Part shown: positions 31,498 to 61,718 of the stretch, piece by piece | Layout of the letters: every line of letters starts with the position of its first letter | Numbering within the stretch: position 1 is the first letter of the stretch | Assembly: GCA_965222115.1 (NCBI GenBank) | Contig: CBDCTJ010000007.1 | Coordinates: 160,001-224,000 of the forward strand | Reading direction: 5' to 3' | DNA: 64,000 nt | From: Planctomycetota bacterium | GTDB lineage: Bacteria; Planctomycetota; PLA2; JAEUHO01 | The notes under the pieces: generated by a model | The model's database searches: none | Told to the model about the DNA's origin: nothing | Seen by the model: the letters and a program-made list of their open reading frames with translations, nothing else | Program-made: the position numbers and the translations under genes

Positions 31498-32646
31498 TTA
31501 CTTCCCAGAATCCGGTTCGTTGGCCTGCCCGCTTCGAGATGGCTCCGCGTCACGCGACTTACTAAGCGCACCTACCAATGCCTTCTCTAGTTTCGCAACA
31601 TCGAAACCACGCGGCCCTCGATCGCCACGAAACGCAACCGTGCCAGCCGGTGCCAAGAGGAAGAGGCGATCCGGATCCGCGGCGTAGGCCTTCGACACCG
31701 TGTCGTTCATGTCGTCCACAAGCACCGGAATGGTGAGTCCGAGGTCCTTGGCGCATTTGCCCGCAACCTTGGAACGCGCTTCAAACGTCTTGGGGTCTTC
31801 CAACTTGATGTGTGATGCGGGGCGGCGCCATCCATCCGTGGGATGCGCTTCGCGTATATAGATCAAATGAAAGTCGGCTTGAGTCTTGTACTTGTTGTAG
31901 AGCGCTTCCAGGCGACCTGCCTGGCGTGTAAAGGGCCCTCAAGTGTGAGAGCCAAAGATCAAGACCGTAAAGCGCGTCGGACGACCGAGATCGATCACTT
32001 GATCACTGCCAAGCCGTTTGGCGGAGACGTTTGGTGCCCTGGACCCTACGGAAGGCGCACCATCACGGACGGCCTTGCCCGACACGGCCGATAACCACTC
32101 CTCGCGATCCAATACGCCGTCACCATTCTTGTCGGACCGCTCGTGAAACGCCTTCCACTCGTCAGCCGAGATCTTCTTGTCGCGGTTGGTGTCTAGTCGC
32201 TGAGCCGAGAGGGTGTTATTCGCACGCCGCGTCGCGCCGCGTTGCCCTTGGCGAGGTGAATTGCCGGCCCGCGACCTCACCGCATCCAAATCCTGCTTGG
32301 AGATGGCACCATCGCCGTCGACGTCGATACGATCAAAGTTGCGCTGCATGCGCCCCTCAACTTCGTCGCGCGTGATCTTTCCATCGCCATTCTTGTCGAA
32401 TCGTTCGGCGAAGCGCTCCCAATTGGGCACGCGGCCACGCATGCGCGCGTCACGGTCACGTCCACGGTTCTTGCGCGGCGGCTGACTCTCGGGCGTGGGT
32501 TCTGACTCAGGAGAATCGGACTGCGGCGACCCAGTTCCCGGCAACTCGCTGCCAGGCGACGGCTCGCCGCCAGGCGGCACGCCATCTTCGGCAAACGCCA
32601 TGCATGAGAATGAGAATGCCAAAATCAGAATCGTGAAGATACGCAT
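31498..32646 (-). CDS. Secreted EF-hand + iodothyronine deiodinase-like selenoprotein (Sec TGA at 31939-31941)
   Basis: Two track ORFs join in frame: ...VLIFGSHT-U-GPFTRQ...LIYIREAHPTDGW...LVDDMNDTVSKAYAADPDRL; four EF hands; SECIS-like hairpin. Confidence 0.88.
31908..31924 (-). promoter_or_regulatory. Bacterial SECIS-like hairpin
   Basis: CCAGGC-AGGTC-GCCTGG starting 14 nt after the UGA. Confidence 0.75.
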
Positions 32647-54329: not shown

Positions 54330-54556
54330 GGCACAAAACTCCTTGGTCGGACGTGGGGTCATGAGGTCACGCCCAATCGGATCTTCTCACTGGATAGGCG
54401 CACGCCGCGAGAAATGTCTACGCAAGTGACAGAGCCGAGACGCGCGGTCACGCGCCCAACCCCACGGGATCCACAAAAGGCAACGAGCCCCCAGCGATAC
54501 CGCCGGAGGCTCGAGCCGTTTCCGTACAACCCCCGGCGAACCGCCGGGGAAAGTGA

Positions 54557-55528
54557 TTACTGTCAGGTGAAGCAGACGCCACCGTAGAGATCGTTGTAGC
54601 TGGGCGCTCCGGCCGGATACGTCGAGTAACACGACGAACTACTGCTCGAATACGTGCTTGGGCCGGTTGAGTAGGAATACCCACTGGAGGAGCCGCTGTA
54701 GACGATAGGAGCAACAGGCTTGGCGGCTGAGGGGCTCGATGAAAGGCCGTCGCTCTTAGAAGCCATCACACCATCGCGAGCGGTCGGGGTTGCTGTAGCA
54801 CCCGACTTGGATGAGCGCGTGGCCGAAACACTACTGCTGCTAGACGCCCGGTACGGCGAACTGGCCATGGCCCGCGGATAGTAGGTCGATGACCCCGAGC
54901 TCACGTAACGCGGCGCGGGGCGCGTGGTGTAGGTGTAGCTACTGCTGGGGTAGTACGAACTCCCACTTGAGTAGTACCTCGAAGCGCTCGAAGAATACGT
55001 AGTGCTTGGCGCATACGCGTAGCTTGAGCTTGGATACGTCGATGCATACGTGGTGCTGCTCGAATAGGGCGTGCTTGAATAAGGTGTCGTATAGGACGAA
55101 CTCGAACGACTCGCGTAGCTGTAGCTGGGCGTGGTGTAGGAATAGCTAGGCGTCGTATAGGAGTAGCTCGGCGTGCTGTATGCGTAACTCGGTGTGGAGT
55201 ACGCGTAGTTTGTGGATGACGAGTACCTGGGATACGAATACGACGTGCTCGTTGATGGGTACGAATAACTTGACGTCGTGTAGCTTGATATCGGGGATGC
55301 GTAGCTCGAAGGATACGAGTACGAATAACTAGGCGTCGAGTAGCTTGTCGTTGGGGTGTAGGCATACGACGGCGTGGACCGGTAGTAGGTATAGGCCCGT
55401 TGCGCGCACTGCGGTGAGCAGGAGCGACGGCAGCGGTAGCGAGCAGCGTTCGCGTCCAGCGTATCGGCCGTGACCCAGGTAGTTAAGGTGAGGCCCAAAA
55501 GTGCCAGACCGATCGTAAGCTTCCTCAT
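54557..55528 (-). CDS. Secreted Ser/Tyr/Thr-rich protein, candidate selenoprotein ending GGVCFT-U-Q (ends at 54563 if TGA is a stop)
   Basis: GGAGG RBS, signal peptide, YSTPSY-type repeats; C-x-x-TGA-CAG-TAA followed by a SECIS-like hairpin. Confidence 0.7.
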
Positions 55529-55765
55529 AACGCCCTCCCATGGGCCTCGTCACCGATTCGATGCACGATCGAAGATTCACGATCGAACAGGTGTCCAAGG
55601 AAGTCAGGTCGAGCACGCGCGCATGTGCCTTTAGAAGCTGTTGCCACGAACTGTGCGCGTTGGTGTTTTGCTCGTACAGACGAAGTACTGAGGACGGACG
55701 ATTCCCTGCTACTTGAGTCTAAGGGACCCTATCGAGCACCTTACGGGGTGTTCGCTGAAGGTGCG

Positions 55766-56656
55766 CTAACCACCGCAAGCAACTGCATTTCCGTGGTTCT
55801 TCTTGAAGATGGCCGTGACGTGCTCGCGCTCGCCTTCACTCAAACCGGAACTCGCCAAGTCGTGTTTGAGCTGGGTCAGCGAACCGTAGCCACTGAGGTA
55901 CCCATTGAGTTTGGCCGCGAGGGTGGAATCGCGAAGCGCTGCTTCATTTCCAACCTTCTTCAGCAATGCACTCGTCAAACGCTTCACCTGACGCAGGCGG
56001 TACTTTTGGTGATAGTCCTCGGCGACATAGAACTTCGTAAACGGGGCAATCTCCGTCTTGACCTCTGCGCCCAAGGTCTTGGCCAACGCGTCGCGGGAAG
56101 CCAACGCGGCTTTCTTTTGCTCGTCACCGTGCGTCCACAGAATCGCCTTGTATTGAACGTAACTCCCTGGGTGCAGCGGATTGTGGGCGCGCCAGAAATA
56201 CTTGAGCAGTGCGTCAAAGGAGAGGACGCTAGGATCGAAGTCGACTTGAATGGCTTCGGTGTGATCGCCCATCTTGCGATAGGTGGGCGCCTTGCTTGTG
56301 CCGCCGCAATAGCCGACGCGCGTACGAATTACGCCAGGAACACTGCCCAACTGGGCGTCCGGTGTCCAAAATCAGCCAACGGCAAAGGTAGCCGTTTGCA
56401 CGCGCGTCTTTGACGCCACCGCTGAATCGGACGACGCGTCTTCGTTTGAAGCGGTCGACTTCGCTGGGGAGGGATGCTCAGAATCTTTGTTCACGGCAGT
56501 TGCTCCTTGGGGCGTATTCGATGACGGCTTAACCTTCGCATCGCCGTCGGCTGCTTGCTCCGCGATTGCAAACGTAGCGCACGCAAGAACAATACAAACG
56601 CCAGTAGCTATCCATGACAGTCGATGGGAAGGGCCGGAATCACTAACTCGAGGCAT
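55766..56656 (-). CDS. msrA: Peptide methionine sulfoxide reductase A, selenocysteine form, N-terminal export/anchor signal (Sec TGA at 56372-56374)
   Basis: In-frame join [31 protein letters not shown]...PTYR..GDHTEA...QY...[11 protein letters not shown]; GUFW replaces GCFW. Confidence 0.92.
56345..56356 (-). promoter_or_regulatory. SECIS-like hairpin of msrA
   Basis: GCCC-AGTT-GGGC starting 15 nt after the UGA, on a lower GGACAC/GTGTTC stem. Confidence 0.6.
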
Positions 56657-57731
56657 CAGAGTCGTTTCCAGACGCCTTGGGCGTCGCCTCGTCCGCTGCG
56701 GCACGAAGGAGGCGCGTTAGGGGTCTTATCAATGGCGGCAAGCGCTGCAACGCAGCCACTTGACGCATAGTGTCGCGAAGGGGAAAGGCCGGTGTGCCCC
56801 CCACGGTATCACCAGATGGAACGTCTCGCATGAGCCCCGAACTCGCGGCCACGTGACAGCCCTTGCCAATCCGAATGTGATCGGCAACGCCGACTTGCGC
56901 ACCGAGCGCACTCCCAGCGCCCACACGAGAGGAACCCGCCAGGCCCGTTTGGGCCGCGATGACGCAGTGTTCGCCCATATGTACGTTGTGCGCAACCTGA
57001 ACGAGGTTGTCAATTTTGCACCCCGTACCAATGACGGTGCTGCCGAACTTGGCTCGGTCCACGCATGTATGTGCACCGACTTCTACGTCGCTCGCAATCC
57101 GCACGTCACCGATGTGGGGCACGCGTTCAAGGCCACCGTGCTCTGAATGGGGCAGGAACCCAAAGCCCTCGCCACCAATGACGGCACCGGCATGCAAAAC
57201 AACGCGATCACCCAAGGTACACCGTTCCCGAATGACGGCACCGGCATGAATACGCCCATCCGCGCCCACCGTCACGTGGGGATAGATCGAAGCACCGGCA
57301 TAGATCCACGTTCCATCGCCAACAACCGCATGGGCACCGATCCACACGCGCGGGCCCAATCGAACGCCCACGCCAATGACGGCGGTCGGATCCACCACGG
57401 CCGTGTCGTGAATCGCTTCATCCGGCGGTAACTCATCGGGAGCATAGGCACATAACACCGTAGTCATCGCGTGTTCGGGACGATCAACAACGATGCGCGC
57501 CGAGGGAGAGAGGTCGTCCCAGGATTCGGCTCCTTTGGGCACAAGCAAGGTTCCGGCAGAAGAAGCGGCCGCCTGTGAGCGCATGCGTTCATCACGAACA
57601 AAAGCAACTTCGTCGGGTGATGCATCGTTCAGTGCGCTGGGGGCGCGAACCGGTTGACTCGCGTTACCAATCAAACGTCCATGTACGAGCGCGGCTATGT
57701 CGCCTGCGGTCTTGGGCTGTCTTTGTGTCAT
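56643..57731 (-). CDS. lpxD: UDP-3-O-(3-hydroxyacyl)glucosamine N-acyltransferase
   Basis: Hexapeptide repeats, [38 protein letters not shown]. Confidence 0.93.
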
Positions 57732-58630: not shown

Positions 58631-61047
58631 TACAGGTCCATTTCCATGCCTATGACCACGTGTCGGCGCGCACCGGCAAAGATGCCACGCGGCGCGCGAC
58701 TCGTGATGTAGTCCTCGTCGAGCAGATTCCCCACGTTGGCAAACAGTGATGTGCGCGTGCGAGGTACACGCCACCGAATGGTTGCATCCAATACCCAATG
58801 CTCGGGGATTTCGCCCACGGTGCCGTCATTGCTGGCTGCGACAGTGTTGGCTTGATCCGAAAACTGCTCGCCCACATACGACGCCCACAGCGACGCCGTC
58901 AATCCATAGCGTGGAAGCTCTGCGCGCAGGCCCACGTGCCCAACCAGATTGGGTGCATACGGAAGTTCGTTTCCTTCAAAGATCCCACCCGACGTGACGT
59001 TCTCCGTCTCCACCCACGTCCACGCCGTATCGAGCCAAAGCTTGGGCGCGCACTCATGCGTGGCGCCACAACCCCCACGGGTACGAAGCGCGGCCAGCAC
59101 GTCCACCGCCGCCGAAAACTCCACGCCATAGTTGCGCGTTTCACCGGCGTTGGTGTTGGTTGTGCTCGCGCCACCCGACTCGTTCGCCGGCACGACCTGG
59201 TTATCAAAGTCAATCAAGAAGCCGGTTACGCCGTAGCGCAACCAGTCACGGGGCTCTCCACGAATGCCGACCTCATAGTTCCAACTGCGCTCAGCCTCCA
59301 AATCCAAATCGGTACCCGTACTGTCAATTGCCTGGGATGTGCGCGGTGGTGCAAACCCTCGGTGAACGCCAGCATGAACGGTGTGTGCCTTGTCAAGATC
59401 AACTTCCACACCCGCAGCAGGTAGCACTTCGGTGTTCTCGGTGTCACCGGAGACATCAACCGGCGCTGCGCCTTGAACGGAGAATCGTCGCTCGGACACA
59501 TAGTGCTCCACGCGAACACCGGCCTGCACGCGAAGACGCTTGGACACGTGCATGGTGTCATGTACATAACCCGACAACGCCCAGAGATCGGTGGTGTCGC
59601 GATCGCGCGTAAACGGAGCGGCATTGGGGTTCACGCGGTTGTGTCGCGTGTTGATAAACAGCTCTTCGTGGTAGCGGGCACCCATTTGAAACTCGTGCTT
59701 GAACCCACTCAACCACCACGTGCCGCGCAAGCGCTCTTCGATGCCGTAACGACGAAACGTACGATCACGCGACCCGTAGCTCTCGCGTAGATAAATCGCT
59801 CCGCCATCCACAGTGGGATCCCCCACGGTGGCGACGGTGTTGGCTGGTGGTGCCGCGAACCCGTTGTTGCGAGCAAAGTCCTGCCGGTTCCAGTTACGAA
59901 AGCCACTACCGTAGTAAAGGCTTGTCTCGGACGTCAAACACGTCGAGAACTCGTGACGCAACCGAAACAGACCGGAGAGCCACTCCACATCAAACTCATC
60001 GTGGCGCGCTGGATTCTGGTGCGGATCGTCGCGGAACATGCCCTCGGTCAAGCCGAGGTACGTTGAATCGGATCGTTGGCGATAGTAGCCAAACTTTCCA
60101 AGCACGGTCGTGCGTGGTCCGAGATCGTGACTCACCTTTGCCATGATGTCGGACACCTCAAATCCGGTGTGATCGCGATAGCCATCGCCACGTTTGTAGA
60201 GCGCGGAAATAAGCGCACCGGTTGCGCCGCGACGTCCGCCGTAGTGAATCGAACTCGTCGCGTAGCCGTCGGTGCCGCCCGCCACACGAAACAGGCCGCC
60301 CTGTGTGTCCGGAATGCGATGCGTACGCAAGTTGAGTACACCGCCCACGGTATGCGGCCCGTGGATGATTTGTCCCGGTCCCTGAATCACATCAATGGTC
60401 TGCAAGCGTTCGAGCGGGGGCATGAAGTAGGACGCGTTGACGGCGTAAGGCGCCAAACTTGCCGGAACGCCATCTTCTAAGATCAACACGCTTTCTGAAC
60501 GATCGGGATTCAATCCACGAAAGCCAATGTTGGGAATCAATCCACCGGTCGCCTCGCCACGAACATGCACGCCCGGTTGTCCACGCAGCGCTTCCTGCAC
60601 GCTCTTTGGCGTTCGCACCAACACAACGTCACGGGCATCCAATTCATAAGACGAGGCTTGAATCGGCACGTTGGCGGTACTGGGCGGCGTAGTGGCATTG
60701 GAAGACGGCGTTGCGGGTGGTGTCGGAGGTGACGGCGGCGTCGGAGTAGGTTGCGGCGGTGTGGGCTGCGGCGTAGGCATCGACGGCGGAGGCAGTTGAT
60801 AGGGCGTCTGCGGGTAGGGATCCACTGGCGCCTGGGGTATGGGTTGAGGAATTGGTATCCGCGGGGCCTCGACTTCGGCAGAAAGGGGTTTACCTGTGTC
60901 GTCCTCGAGCTCGAGCGTGGGTTCTTCCGGCGCCGCCACGTCATCACCTTCTTCGGCTTGAACGTGGGATCCCCAAGCAATCAACAAGACCACGGCCATG
61001 GGGACCGCCCACTGAAACAGCCACCGTACGCCCGTTGTAATTCGCAT
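58630..61047 (-). CDS. TonB-dependent receptor (FecA-like, probable iron uptake)
   Basis: Plug NIGFRGL.P.RS...LEDGVP...IDVIQG...GGVLN; AERSWNYEVG, NAGET..YGVE, GNELPYAP, NLLDEDY. Confidence 0.92.
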   Translation of the reverse strand: MRITTGVRWLFQWAVPMAVVLLIAWGSHVQAEEGDDVAAPEEPTLELEDDTGKPLSAEVEAPRIPIPQPIPQAPVDPYPQTPYQLPPPSMPTPQPTPPQPTPTPPSPPTPPATPSSNATTPPSTANVPIQASSYELDARDVVLVRTPKSVQEALRGQPGVHVRGEATGGLIPNIGFRGLNPDRSESVLILEDGVPASLAPYAVNASYFMPPLERLQTIDVIQGPGQIIHGPHTVGGVLNLRTHRIPDTQGGLFRVAGGTDGYATSSIHYGGRRGATGALISALYKRGDGYRDHTGFEVSDIMAKVSHDLGPRTTVLGKFGYYRQRSDSTYLGLTEGMFRDDPHQNPARHDEFDVEWLSGLFRLRHEFSTCLTSETSLYYGSGFRNWNRQDFARNNGFAAPPANTVATVGDPTVDGGAIYLRESYGSRDRTFRRYGIEERLRGTWWLSGFKHEFQMGARYHEELFINTRHNRVNPNAAPFTRDRDTTDLWALSGYVHDTMHVSKRLRVQAGVRVEHYVSERRFSVQGAAPVDVSGDTENTEVLPAAGVEVDLDKAHTVHAGVHRGFAPPRTSQAIDSTGTDLDLEAERSWNYEVGIRGEPRDWLRYGVTGFLIDFDNQVVPANESGGASTTNTNAGETRNYGVEFSAAVDVLAALRTRGGCGATHECAPKLWLDTAWTWVETENVTSGGIFEGNELPYAPNLVGHVGLRAELPRYGLTASLWASYVGEQFSDQANTVAASNDGTVGEIPEHWVLDATIRWRVPRTRTSLFANVGNLLDEDYITSRAPRGIFAGARRHVVIGMEMDL

Positions 61048-61124: not shown

Positions 61125-61718
61125 TTACATAGCGTAGCCCATGTCGCCTGACTGCCTCAATCGATCTTCATAAAATCCTTCAGGCACTTCACTTACGCCG
61201 GAACCATCGATCCATCGGTTGAAAAAATTGAAGATGGCGCACACCGTCAATGCGTCAAAAATCGCGCTTTCCGACCAACCCGCCGCCTTCGCGCGGTCCA
61301 CGTCGGCCTGCTCGACCGATGCCGGAGCGTCATTCACTTTGGCGAGGTAGCGAAAGAGCGCCTTTTCGTTCTCCGGCAAGGCGGAGGCTTCAAAGTCGTA
61401 GCAGACCGAACGGACGAACGGATCGTCGTCAAGAAGGTGCGCCGCGACCGCGGCGTGCGCTGACGTTCAGAATCGACAGTCGTTGCGCGCAGAAATAAAC
61501 GATGCAATAAGCTCTCGGAAACCGGGCGATAGGTCGCTAGGACCACGCATGACGTCTTCCATGAAATTACTCAAGTGTTTGGCGGCAAGGGGGCGCTGCG
61601 CAAAGAGATAATAGATACCCGGCGGTTCCGTGCCCTGCTCGCGGCAGTGCGCAATCACACGCCCATAGCGACCCGATGCTTCGGGCGGCTCACGTTGCTC
61701 GATCTCTTGGAGATACAT
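61125..61718 (-). CDS. AhpD/carboxymuconolactone decarboxylase-family peroxidase-like selenoprotein (CxxU, Sec TGA at 61467-61469)
   Basis: In-frame join RELIASFISARNDCRF-U-TSAH...EKALFRY...KAAGWS...FNFFNRW. Confidence 0.9.
61440..61455 (-). promoter_or_regulatory. SECIS-like hairpin of the AhpD-like gene
   Basis: CGCCGC-GGTC-GCGGCG starting 11 nt after the UGA. Confidence 0.75.

Follow-up and report, generated by a model that had tools for sequence, protein, structure and literature searches.

A probable C-terminal selenocysteine tail with its own downstream hairpin on an exported planctomycete protein, and tails of the same type on otherwise unrelated proteins of its order

Selenocysteine (Sec, U in one-letter motifs) at the C-terminus is already known from the SaoC, KCU-star and UXX-star families. 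SaoC (the CD2366 family, NF040734) comprises lipoproteins ending in Cys-Cys-COOH or Cys-Sec-COOH (10.1101/2022.07.06.499078), KCU-star (NF033934, DUF466-related) has a C-terminal Sec whose Sec insertion sequence (SECIS) lies past the true stop (10.1101/2022.07.06.499078), and UXX-star, GUXX-star and UXPK-star are listed as families in Table 1 of PMC13188914. Here we describe a gene in a 64,000-nt stretch of DNA from a Planctomycetota bacterium (G000:C7:160001-224000, hereafter the window; the G000 assembly comprises 4.55 Mb in 7 contigs). The UGA at 54565..54563 of this gene very probably encodes Sec, and tails of the same kind, each followed by a hairpin, were found in nine other genes of the same order. 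What seems to be new here is the type of tail and its presence on unrelated exported proteins.

If read through its UGA, the window gene resembles SaoC in encoding an exported product with a signal or lipoprotein peptide, in placing Sec at the extreme C-terminus near a Cys, in having a second stop after the UGA and in carrying a SECIS hairpin with a G-containing loop in the 3' untranslated region (3' UTR); genes of both kinds are truncated by gene callers. SaoC is, however, one homologous family of about 158 aa with a conserved nine-gene neighbourhood in anaerobes, and it ends in C-U (10.1101/2022.07.06.499078), whereas the tail described here reads C-x-T-U-G/Q, occurs in Planctomycetota, and is attached to unrelated proteins with no shared neighbourhood. 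The KCU-, UXX-, GUXX- and UXPK-star families likewise have Sec among the last few residues, with a SECIS necessarily beyond the true stop, but their motifs (K-C-U, U-x-x and G-U-x-x) are each tied to one protein family. Neither a C-x-T-U-G tail nor a tail common to unrelated exported proteins is described in the portions of the literature examined, a comparison that did not extend to the paper in which the star families originate, Haft & Tolstoy 2025. In the papers on BSepDB and deep-Sep neither 'Planctomycet' nor 'C-terminal' occurs. A literature search on 'CFTU' gave nothing relevant among the matches listed.

Animal thioredoxin reductase has a flexible Gly-Cys-Sec-Gly-COOH tail, and SelS and SelK are disordered proteins with a C-terminal Sec. 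CxxU redox motifs are also found in thioredoxin-fold selenoproteins, for example in SelW-like and AhpD-like proteins (PMC13188914, Table 1). The present tail resembles these proteins in the two-residue separation of its Cys from its Sec, in a penultimate Sec followed by Gly, and in its flexible end. Their motifs, in contrast, are situated in or on a folded redox enzyme, and the eukaryotic SECIS is distant, in the 3' UTR and of another type, while the window protein has no folded domain and a bacterial SECIS must sit 10-14 nt past the UGA.

The open reading frame (ORF) on the reverse strand runs from an ATG at 55528 to the UGA (55528..54563, 321 codons) and its last residues are D-L-Y-G-G-V-C-F-T. 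An earlier preliminary description of this DNA had proposed a terminal CxxU motif with a second stop two codons on, and the end ...GGVCFT-TGA-CAG-TAA agrees with it letter for letter, as does the N-terminal CRRSCSPQC. Ser, Tyr, Thr and Pro account for 0.67 of the residues of the protein. No Pfam family (0 matches) was recovered with it, and hmmscan of the read-through protein against NCBIfam 20.0 with E up to 1 returned 0 families, including SaoC (NF040734), KCU-star (NF033934) and UXX-star (NF041114/NF041211); in the earlier description it had not been recognised as a known selenoprotein family, and both searches agree with this. An Rfam scan of the window at gathering thresholds gave 0 matches. 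We regard the ORF as a genuine gene whose product is exported and disordered. It is flanked by genes for a Sec-type MsrA and an exported thioredoxin-like protein, with intergenic gaps of 237 and 194 nt. A homologue of the thioredoxin-like gene is present in 12 of 28 family genomes (31-41% identity), and in the 11 of these loci that were examined neither a Ser/Tyr-rich gene nor a TGA tail with Cys lies alongside.

Downstream of the stop lies the hairpin CCCCGGC-GGUUC-GCCGGGG (54549..54531), whose stem begins 13 nt past the TGA and 7 bases past the TAA, as previously described. Under the bacterial SECIS (bSECIS) model, that of bSECISearch, the loop has 3-9 nt, the stem 4-16 bp, and a G stands at the first or second loop position (PMC13188914, Fig. 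2 legend), usually followed by G or U; the spacing from UGA to loop is 16-37 nt and the minimum free energy at most -7.5 kcal/mol (PMC13188914). The window hairpin falls within all of these limits: its loop GGUUC starts 20 nt past the UGA, and RNAfold gives -16.0 kcal/mol with 8 pairs and a loop GUU (7 bp if the loop is read as GGUUC). It differs from the bSECIS consensus in lying within the 3' UTR, without coding constraint, because only one more codon comes after the UGA. No U-tract follows the stem, again in agreement with the first account: GUUGUACGG comes next, that is GUUGUACGGA with 3 T per 10 nt, which falls short of an intrinsic terminator. A terminator scan omits the hairpin and lists a site at 54513..54484 instead (one site found vs 1.3 expected in shuffled sequences, a consensus match only). 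By comparison with the other genes described below, the window hairpin appears to be of SECIS type and not of terminator type.

Sec decoding seems possible in this genome, with a reservation for selD (see below). ARAGORN found a tRNA-Sec, SelA was matched at 416 bits, and SelB is a 651-aa open frame with the wing-3 domain; SelA also occurs in all but two of the order's 40 genomes (38 of 40), the seven tail carriers among them. Nine G000 genes contain an in-frame UGA and are open and NCBIfam-matching on both sides of the U (three deiodinase-family, two ResA-like, one AhpD-like, MsrA, one ArsC/Spx-like and one Trx/DsbH-like), and the family matches that span these nine UGAs argue that Sec decoding is in use. 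Their validated in-ORF SECIS have UGA-loop spacings of 16-24 nt, UGA-stem distances of 11-16 nt, stems of 4-6 bp and the loops AGUUC, AGGUC, AGGUU, GGUC, AGUU, CGUGU and CGUGC. Three of the nine are in the window, all of them split at the UGA by ordinary ORF calling, and their spacings (20, 19 and 17 nt) and loops (AGGTC, AGTT and GGTC) bear out the likeness in geometry to the window hairpin that had been noted before.

The proposed Cys-x-Thr-Sec end is not confined to the window gene. A scan of G000 for Cys-x-Thr-TGA (extension up to 6 codons, upstream ORF of at least 80 codons) gave 10 matches, four of which are signal-peptide proteins followed by a hairpin (Table 1). With TAG or TAA in place of TGA, the kind of end that would speak for an ordinary stop, one match each was found, in ORFs of 86 and 90 codons that are not gene-like; on this point the refuting test named in the earlier description turned out in favour of its reading. 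One of the four, the gene of a CAP-domain lipoprotein, ends ...PPECKT-TGA-AGT-CGC-TAA and has a loop GGUUC 16 nt past the UGA; a long tail rich in Pro and Ser closes this lipoprotein with RRCSPSPVPPECKT-U-SR-stop, and its R-R-C-S-P stretch resembles the RRSCSPQC close to the N-terminus of the window protein. In a statistical scan of G000 (stop-to-stop ORFs of at least 150 codons, with a SECIS-like hairpin and an extension of up to 6 codons), hairpin and extension followed 4 of 97 TGA ends with Cys at -3, against 20 of 3279 among the remaining TGA ends, 14 of 2894 for TAG and 6 of 1293 for TAA. Cys at -3 was found at 54 TAG or TAA ends, not one of which had both hairpin and extension. The enrichment at TGA ends with Cys at -3 indicates that the pattern is more than chance.

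Across the 40 genomes of the order the pattern TGYTTYACNTGANNNTAR has six matches, three of them in G000 and the others singly in G015, G022 and G027 (4 genomes in all), compared with 2 for the reversed pattern. All six close long ORFs that open with a signal or lipoprotein peptide, and five of them read TGA-GGC-TAG, the window gene reading TGA-CAG-TAA. In G015, G022 and G027 a G+C hairpin follows in each case (loops GUC, GUU and CGUGU, 18-21 nt past the UGA). Relaxing the second residue (TGYNNNACNTGAGGNTAG) added three more genomes (G009, G014 and G028), and two of these three genes use GGG as the Gly codon, a synonymous change right after the UGA. Altogether there are ten tail genes in 7 of the 40 genomes, four in G000 and six in six others, on otherwise unrelated proteins, and 8 of the 9 complete ones start with a signal or lipoprotein peptide. 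The tail gene of G015 shares its DUF309, ThiF-TusA and T2SSF neighbours with the G000 gene at C7:1882321, so that the two are syntenic and positional orthologues; their protein bodies have diverged and the CFTUG end has been kept. This is the only syntenic pair, and no shared partner gene was found near eight of the tail genes when their 63 flanking ORFs were compared with Pfam.

The TGA codons of the tail genes can be aligned over the tail only, the rest of the proteins being unrelated. Eight of the 10 have a Gly codon (GGC or GGG) directly behind the TGA. The synonymous variation (TGC/TGT, ACC/ACG and GGC/GGG) points to selection on the amino acids, including the residue after the UGA. A hairpin whose stem has 7 bp or more, with 5 or more of the pairs G-C, and a loop G[G/U] 16-22 nt past the UGA is present in all ten, with differing but covarying sequences. 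Pairs were counted on a gapless register, as three hairpins were misplaced in the MAFFT alignments A1 and A2. All ten genes form each of the six inner pairs, every position showing 2-4 pair types, whereas only 285 of 630 cells still pair when arms are exchanged between genes, and 37-54% when the partner column is slid. The stems have 7-9 bp, all G-C, and are longer than those of the in-ORF SECIS of G000. In this comparison, tail and hairpin are conserved as one unit, and the codon after the UGA is conserved as an amino acid.

In a sample of 401 Planctomycetota genomes there were 36 matches to the CFT pattern outside the order, against about 16 for the reversed control (17 with the one in G000). 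Of these 36, 26 were inspected, and not one combined a hairpin with an upstream ORF of 100 codons or more. An exact 18-mer scan (TGCTTCACSTGAGGCTAG) of the genomes of 185,579 species gave six loci, namely G015, G022, one Chloroflexota radical SAM gene and three that look like chance, and metagenome contigs scanned with TGCTTCACSTGAGGCTAG gave 13 loci with no planctomycete-type tail gene. So far, then, the exported-protein tail appears confined to this order of Planctomycetota among the genomes and metagenomes searched.

A Cys counterpart of the tail also seems to exist. CFTCG-stop is absent from all 40 order genomes; C-x-T-C-G-stop has eight matches in them, five of which look like chance and three of which represent one conserved lipoprotein of 29-30 aa (MRRIFLAL...GTAAC-TGGGCSTCG-stop) with good ribosome-binding sites. 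Its mature lipopeptide would have about 10 residues and end in C-S-T-C-G, and no NCBIfam match below E = 0.05 was obtained. Past the stops of these three genes no SECIS-type hairpin was found; there are terminators with stems of about 11-17 bp and U-tracts, starting 16-27 nt after the stop. The Sec gene of G009 ends ...LLGGGCGT-U-G-stop, which matches the GGGCSTCG of the Cys form, and to judge from these ends the two look like the Sec and Cys versions of one tail, but over eight residues homology cannot be proven. The agreement with the bSECIS limits and the nine further tail genes, together with this candidate Cys form, support the earlier proposal of a new exported, disordered selenoprotein with a terminal CxxU served by a SECIS-like hairpin in the 3' UTR.

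In the mechanism that we propose, the hairpin 13 nt downstream would recruit SelB carrying Sec-tRNA(Sec) once the ribosome reaches the UGA, SelB probably binding the loop with the UGA in the A site. Sec would then be inserted, Gln added and translation ended at the TAA, and a fraction of the ribosomes may still terminate at the UGA. The product would be an exported and largely disordered protein of about 300 residues with the end -Cys-Phe-Thr-Sec-Gln-COOH, which would exemplify a portable tail of the form Cys-x-Thr-Sec-(Gly, rarely Gln or Ser-Arg)-COOH carried by unrelated and mostly exported proteins of this order of Planctomycetota.

Several observations weigh against this proposal. The window gene departs from the consensus of the tail, with Gln and TAA in place of Gly and TAG, and its hairpin (7-8 bp, all G-C) is stronger than the in-ORF SECIS of G000 and could also slow or stop transcription. 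A covariance model (R1) built on three deiodinase-family SECIS gave the hairpin 10.3 bits (E = 7.2, rank 14 of 17); we set this model aside as having no power, because it reported 0 of the 6 other validated SECIS at E up to 10 in the sequences searched. No whole-protein homologue was found in the 40 relatives besides its own genome, so that the argument draws on the tail, and in a set of 5.8 billion proteins none of 8000 scored candidates reached E <= 0.01; low complexity probably blunts both searches. Among the Sec genes named in the preliminary description (selA, selB, selC and selD), tRNA-Sec, SelA and SelB are intact but selD, though present, reads as frameshifted in this assembly: its match (150.6 bits, G000:C1:654443-655201, locus L096), itself of Sec type with GG-U-AAK, crosses five TGA and one TAA, with at least five frame changes by eye, no more than 1.2 kb from a contig end. 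The frameshifts may be an assembly error or mark a pseudogene; a genuine selD pseudogene would rule out the synthesis of Sec.

The alternative that survives best, though we regard it as improbable, is that the TGA is an ordinary stop: the protein would end in ...VCFT, the hairpin would be a terminator without U-tract or an mRNA-stabilising stem, and CAG-TAA a chance tandem stop. The case for Sec rests on comparison, and TGA ends 975 of the 3247 crudely called genes of G000. Hairpins past stops are common as well. When the ends of this crude gene set were examined as a control (stop usage: TAG 1563, the commonest, TGA 975 and TAA 709), 183 of 2272 TAG or TAA ends had, no further than 45 nt away, a G+C-rich stem with 7 or more pairs, 5 or more of them G-C; these stems are widely scattered in position, 37 of the 183 having loops that start at 16-22 nt, and only 30 of 183 have loops G[G/U]. 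An ordinary stop leaves unexplained, however, why ten unrelated genes have Cys-x-Thr before the TGA, with Gly next in eight, and why the loop is always G[G/U] at 16-22 nt when measured from the TGA and not from the final stop. Nor does it account for the different, U-tract hairpin of the Cys form, or for the separate terminator-like site just downstream of the window hairpin.

Much less probable still is that the ORF is not a gene, a low-complexity frame open by chance whose likeness to the tails is coincidental. The ORF was left out by the crude gene caller, no homologues or domains were found, and its codon-usage score is slightly negative (-6.7), another point against Sec at this site. That score is nevertheless by far the best of the six frames (the others range from -22 to -215), the G+C content at third codon positions (GC3) is 0.69, GGGAGGG stands 4 nt before the ATG and the N-terminus is hydrophobic and signal-like. 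Moreover, the end is the pentapeptide-plus-hairpin unit of nine other genes, and the letters of tail and hairpin are identical in contigs of four sequencing runs wherever covered (two samples of one study, possibly the source of the assembly itself). A Sec-independent recoding or ribosome-stalling signal made of TGA-GGC-TAG and the hairpin (near-cognate read-through or regulated termination), for which the 22 identical bases around the UGA in two G000 genes might be cited, is equally remote, given that the TGC/TGT, ACC/ACG and GGC/GGG variation points to selection on amino acids, that the hairpins match validated G000 SECIS down to the specific CGUGU loop, and that the Cys form has a Cys codon in place of the TGA in an order where every tail carrier has SelA.

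If the UGA is decoded as Sec, the Cys and the Sec, two residues apart on a flexible and often Gly/Ser-rich end, may form a selenylsulfide redox centre or a soft-metal-binding centre, by analogy with the CxxU motifs of other selenoproteins. A possible but unlikely role for Cys-x-Thr-Sec-Gly-COOH is that of a portable Sec tag with its own 3'-UTR SECIS rather than the active site of one enzyme family, providing a reactive selenol handle, for example for selenylsulfide tethering or cross-linking to the envelope or a common partner. The planctomycetal envelope is cystine-rich. The carriers of the tag would comprise disordered Ser/Tyr-rich and Pro/Lys-rich proteins, a helical protein, the CAP-domain lipoprotein and perhaps a lipopeptide only a few residues long, and we would liken the tag, with similar doubt, to the sorting signals that mark cargo.

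In bacteria, Sec is usually detected where an in-frame TGA aligns with Cys in a folded redox domain, and this approach misses a Sec near the end of a disordered orphan; gene callers stop at the TGA and the Sec tail is cut off. The present genes suggest that an order of Planctomycetota devotes its expensive Sec machinery to the C-termini of exported proteins that are not enzymes, and that a minimal 3'-UTR hairpin is enough to mark a Sec site. A compact unit of about 15 nt of coding sequence and a 19-nt hairpin could serve for studying Sec insertion outside the ORF and possibly for C-terminal selenol tagging. These genes also add to the evidence that the selenoproteomes of uncultured lineages are under-counted.

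Table 1. Features of the window gene, Sec-type genes of the window, and genes with the Sec or Cys form of the tail (positions without a contig or locus name refer to the window)
Feature	Coordinates	Strand	Basis
Coding sequence through UGA, 323 residues ending ...GGVCFT-U-Q, Ser/Tyr/Thr/Pro-rich	54560..55528	(-)	ORF and translation; tail scan
UGA, proposed Sec codon (residue 322); motif Cys319-Phe-Thr-Sec322	54563..54565	(-)	Sequence, tail comparison
CAG (Gln; 54562..54560), then TAA (54559..54557), true stop	54557..54562	(-)	Read from sequence
Shine-Dalgarno-like GGGAGGG, 4 nt ahead of ATG	55533..55539	(-)	Read from sequence
Probable signal peptide MRKLTIGLALLGLTLTTWVTA, hydrophobic	55466..55528	(-)	Inference, cleavage site by eye
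SECIS-type hairpin CCCCGGC-GGUUC-GCCGGGG in 3' UTR	54531..54549	(-)	Sequence, RNAfold, tail comparison
Terminator-like hairpin (13 pairs, G-T allowed) then TTGCCTTTTG, 17 nt past SECIS-type hairpin	54474..54513	(-)	Consensus match only
Deiodinase-family selenoprotein gene, UGA 31941, loop AGGTC, spacing 20	31501-32646	(-)	NCBIfam match spans U
MsrA selenoprotein gene, UGA 56374, loop AGTT, spacing 19	55769-56704	(-)	NCBIfam match spans U
AhpD-like selenoprotein gene, UGA 61469, loop GGTC, spacing 17	61128-61718	(-)	NCBIfam match spans U
Tail gene QYECFT-U-G	G000 C3:48719		Tail scan
Tail gene GGSTCFT-U-G	G000 C7:1882321		Tail scan
CAP/SCP-domain lipoprotein tail gene CKT-U-SR	G000:C7:1198372-1199694 (L006:1372-2694)	(+)	Strict SECIS-loop scan and tail scan
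Tail CGT-U-G, 46-codon ORF, only a hydrophobic stretch ahead of tail	G009
Tail CAT-U-G, cut by contig end	G014
Tail CPT-U-G, with signal peptide	G028
Cys-form lipoprotein gene (G017)	L100:70-159	(-)
Cys-form lipoprotein gene (G044)	L101:1429-1515	(+)
Cys-form lipoprotein gene (G001)	L102:1504-1590	(-)

Several minor observations were made along the way. Five metagenome contigs (L083, L087, L089, L092 and L094) share a near-identical ...AGGTGCTTCACCTGAGGCTAGGCCTCAAACCAGA... with a 33-codon ORF as the only one ahead of the TGA; this stretch is a conserved element unrelated to the tail genes. An Ardenticatenia metagenome-assembled genome (L078:640-1515 (+); also L084 and L090) encodes a radical SAM protein of the Rv1681 family (308.6 bits with NF049973, the match reaching profile position 325 of 326) whose gene ends ...ERACFT-TGA-GGC-TAG, with a hairpin GGCCUC-CGGGA-GAGGCC 20 nt past the UGA. 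No literature joining 'Rv1681' and 'selenocysteine' was found. Among its 120 best database homologues, all 40 listed end in -FT (one in -FS), as do nearly all the rest in -FT by a tally of C-terminal octamers, and the called stops in the Chloroflexota clade of this family may hide an x-F-T-Sec-Gly end. In the window itself, a gene for a TonB-dependent receptor (58633-61047 (-)) has LpxD and MsrA to one side of it and, to the other, the selenoprotein gene of AhpD-like type.

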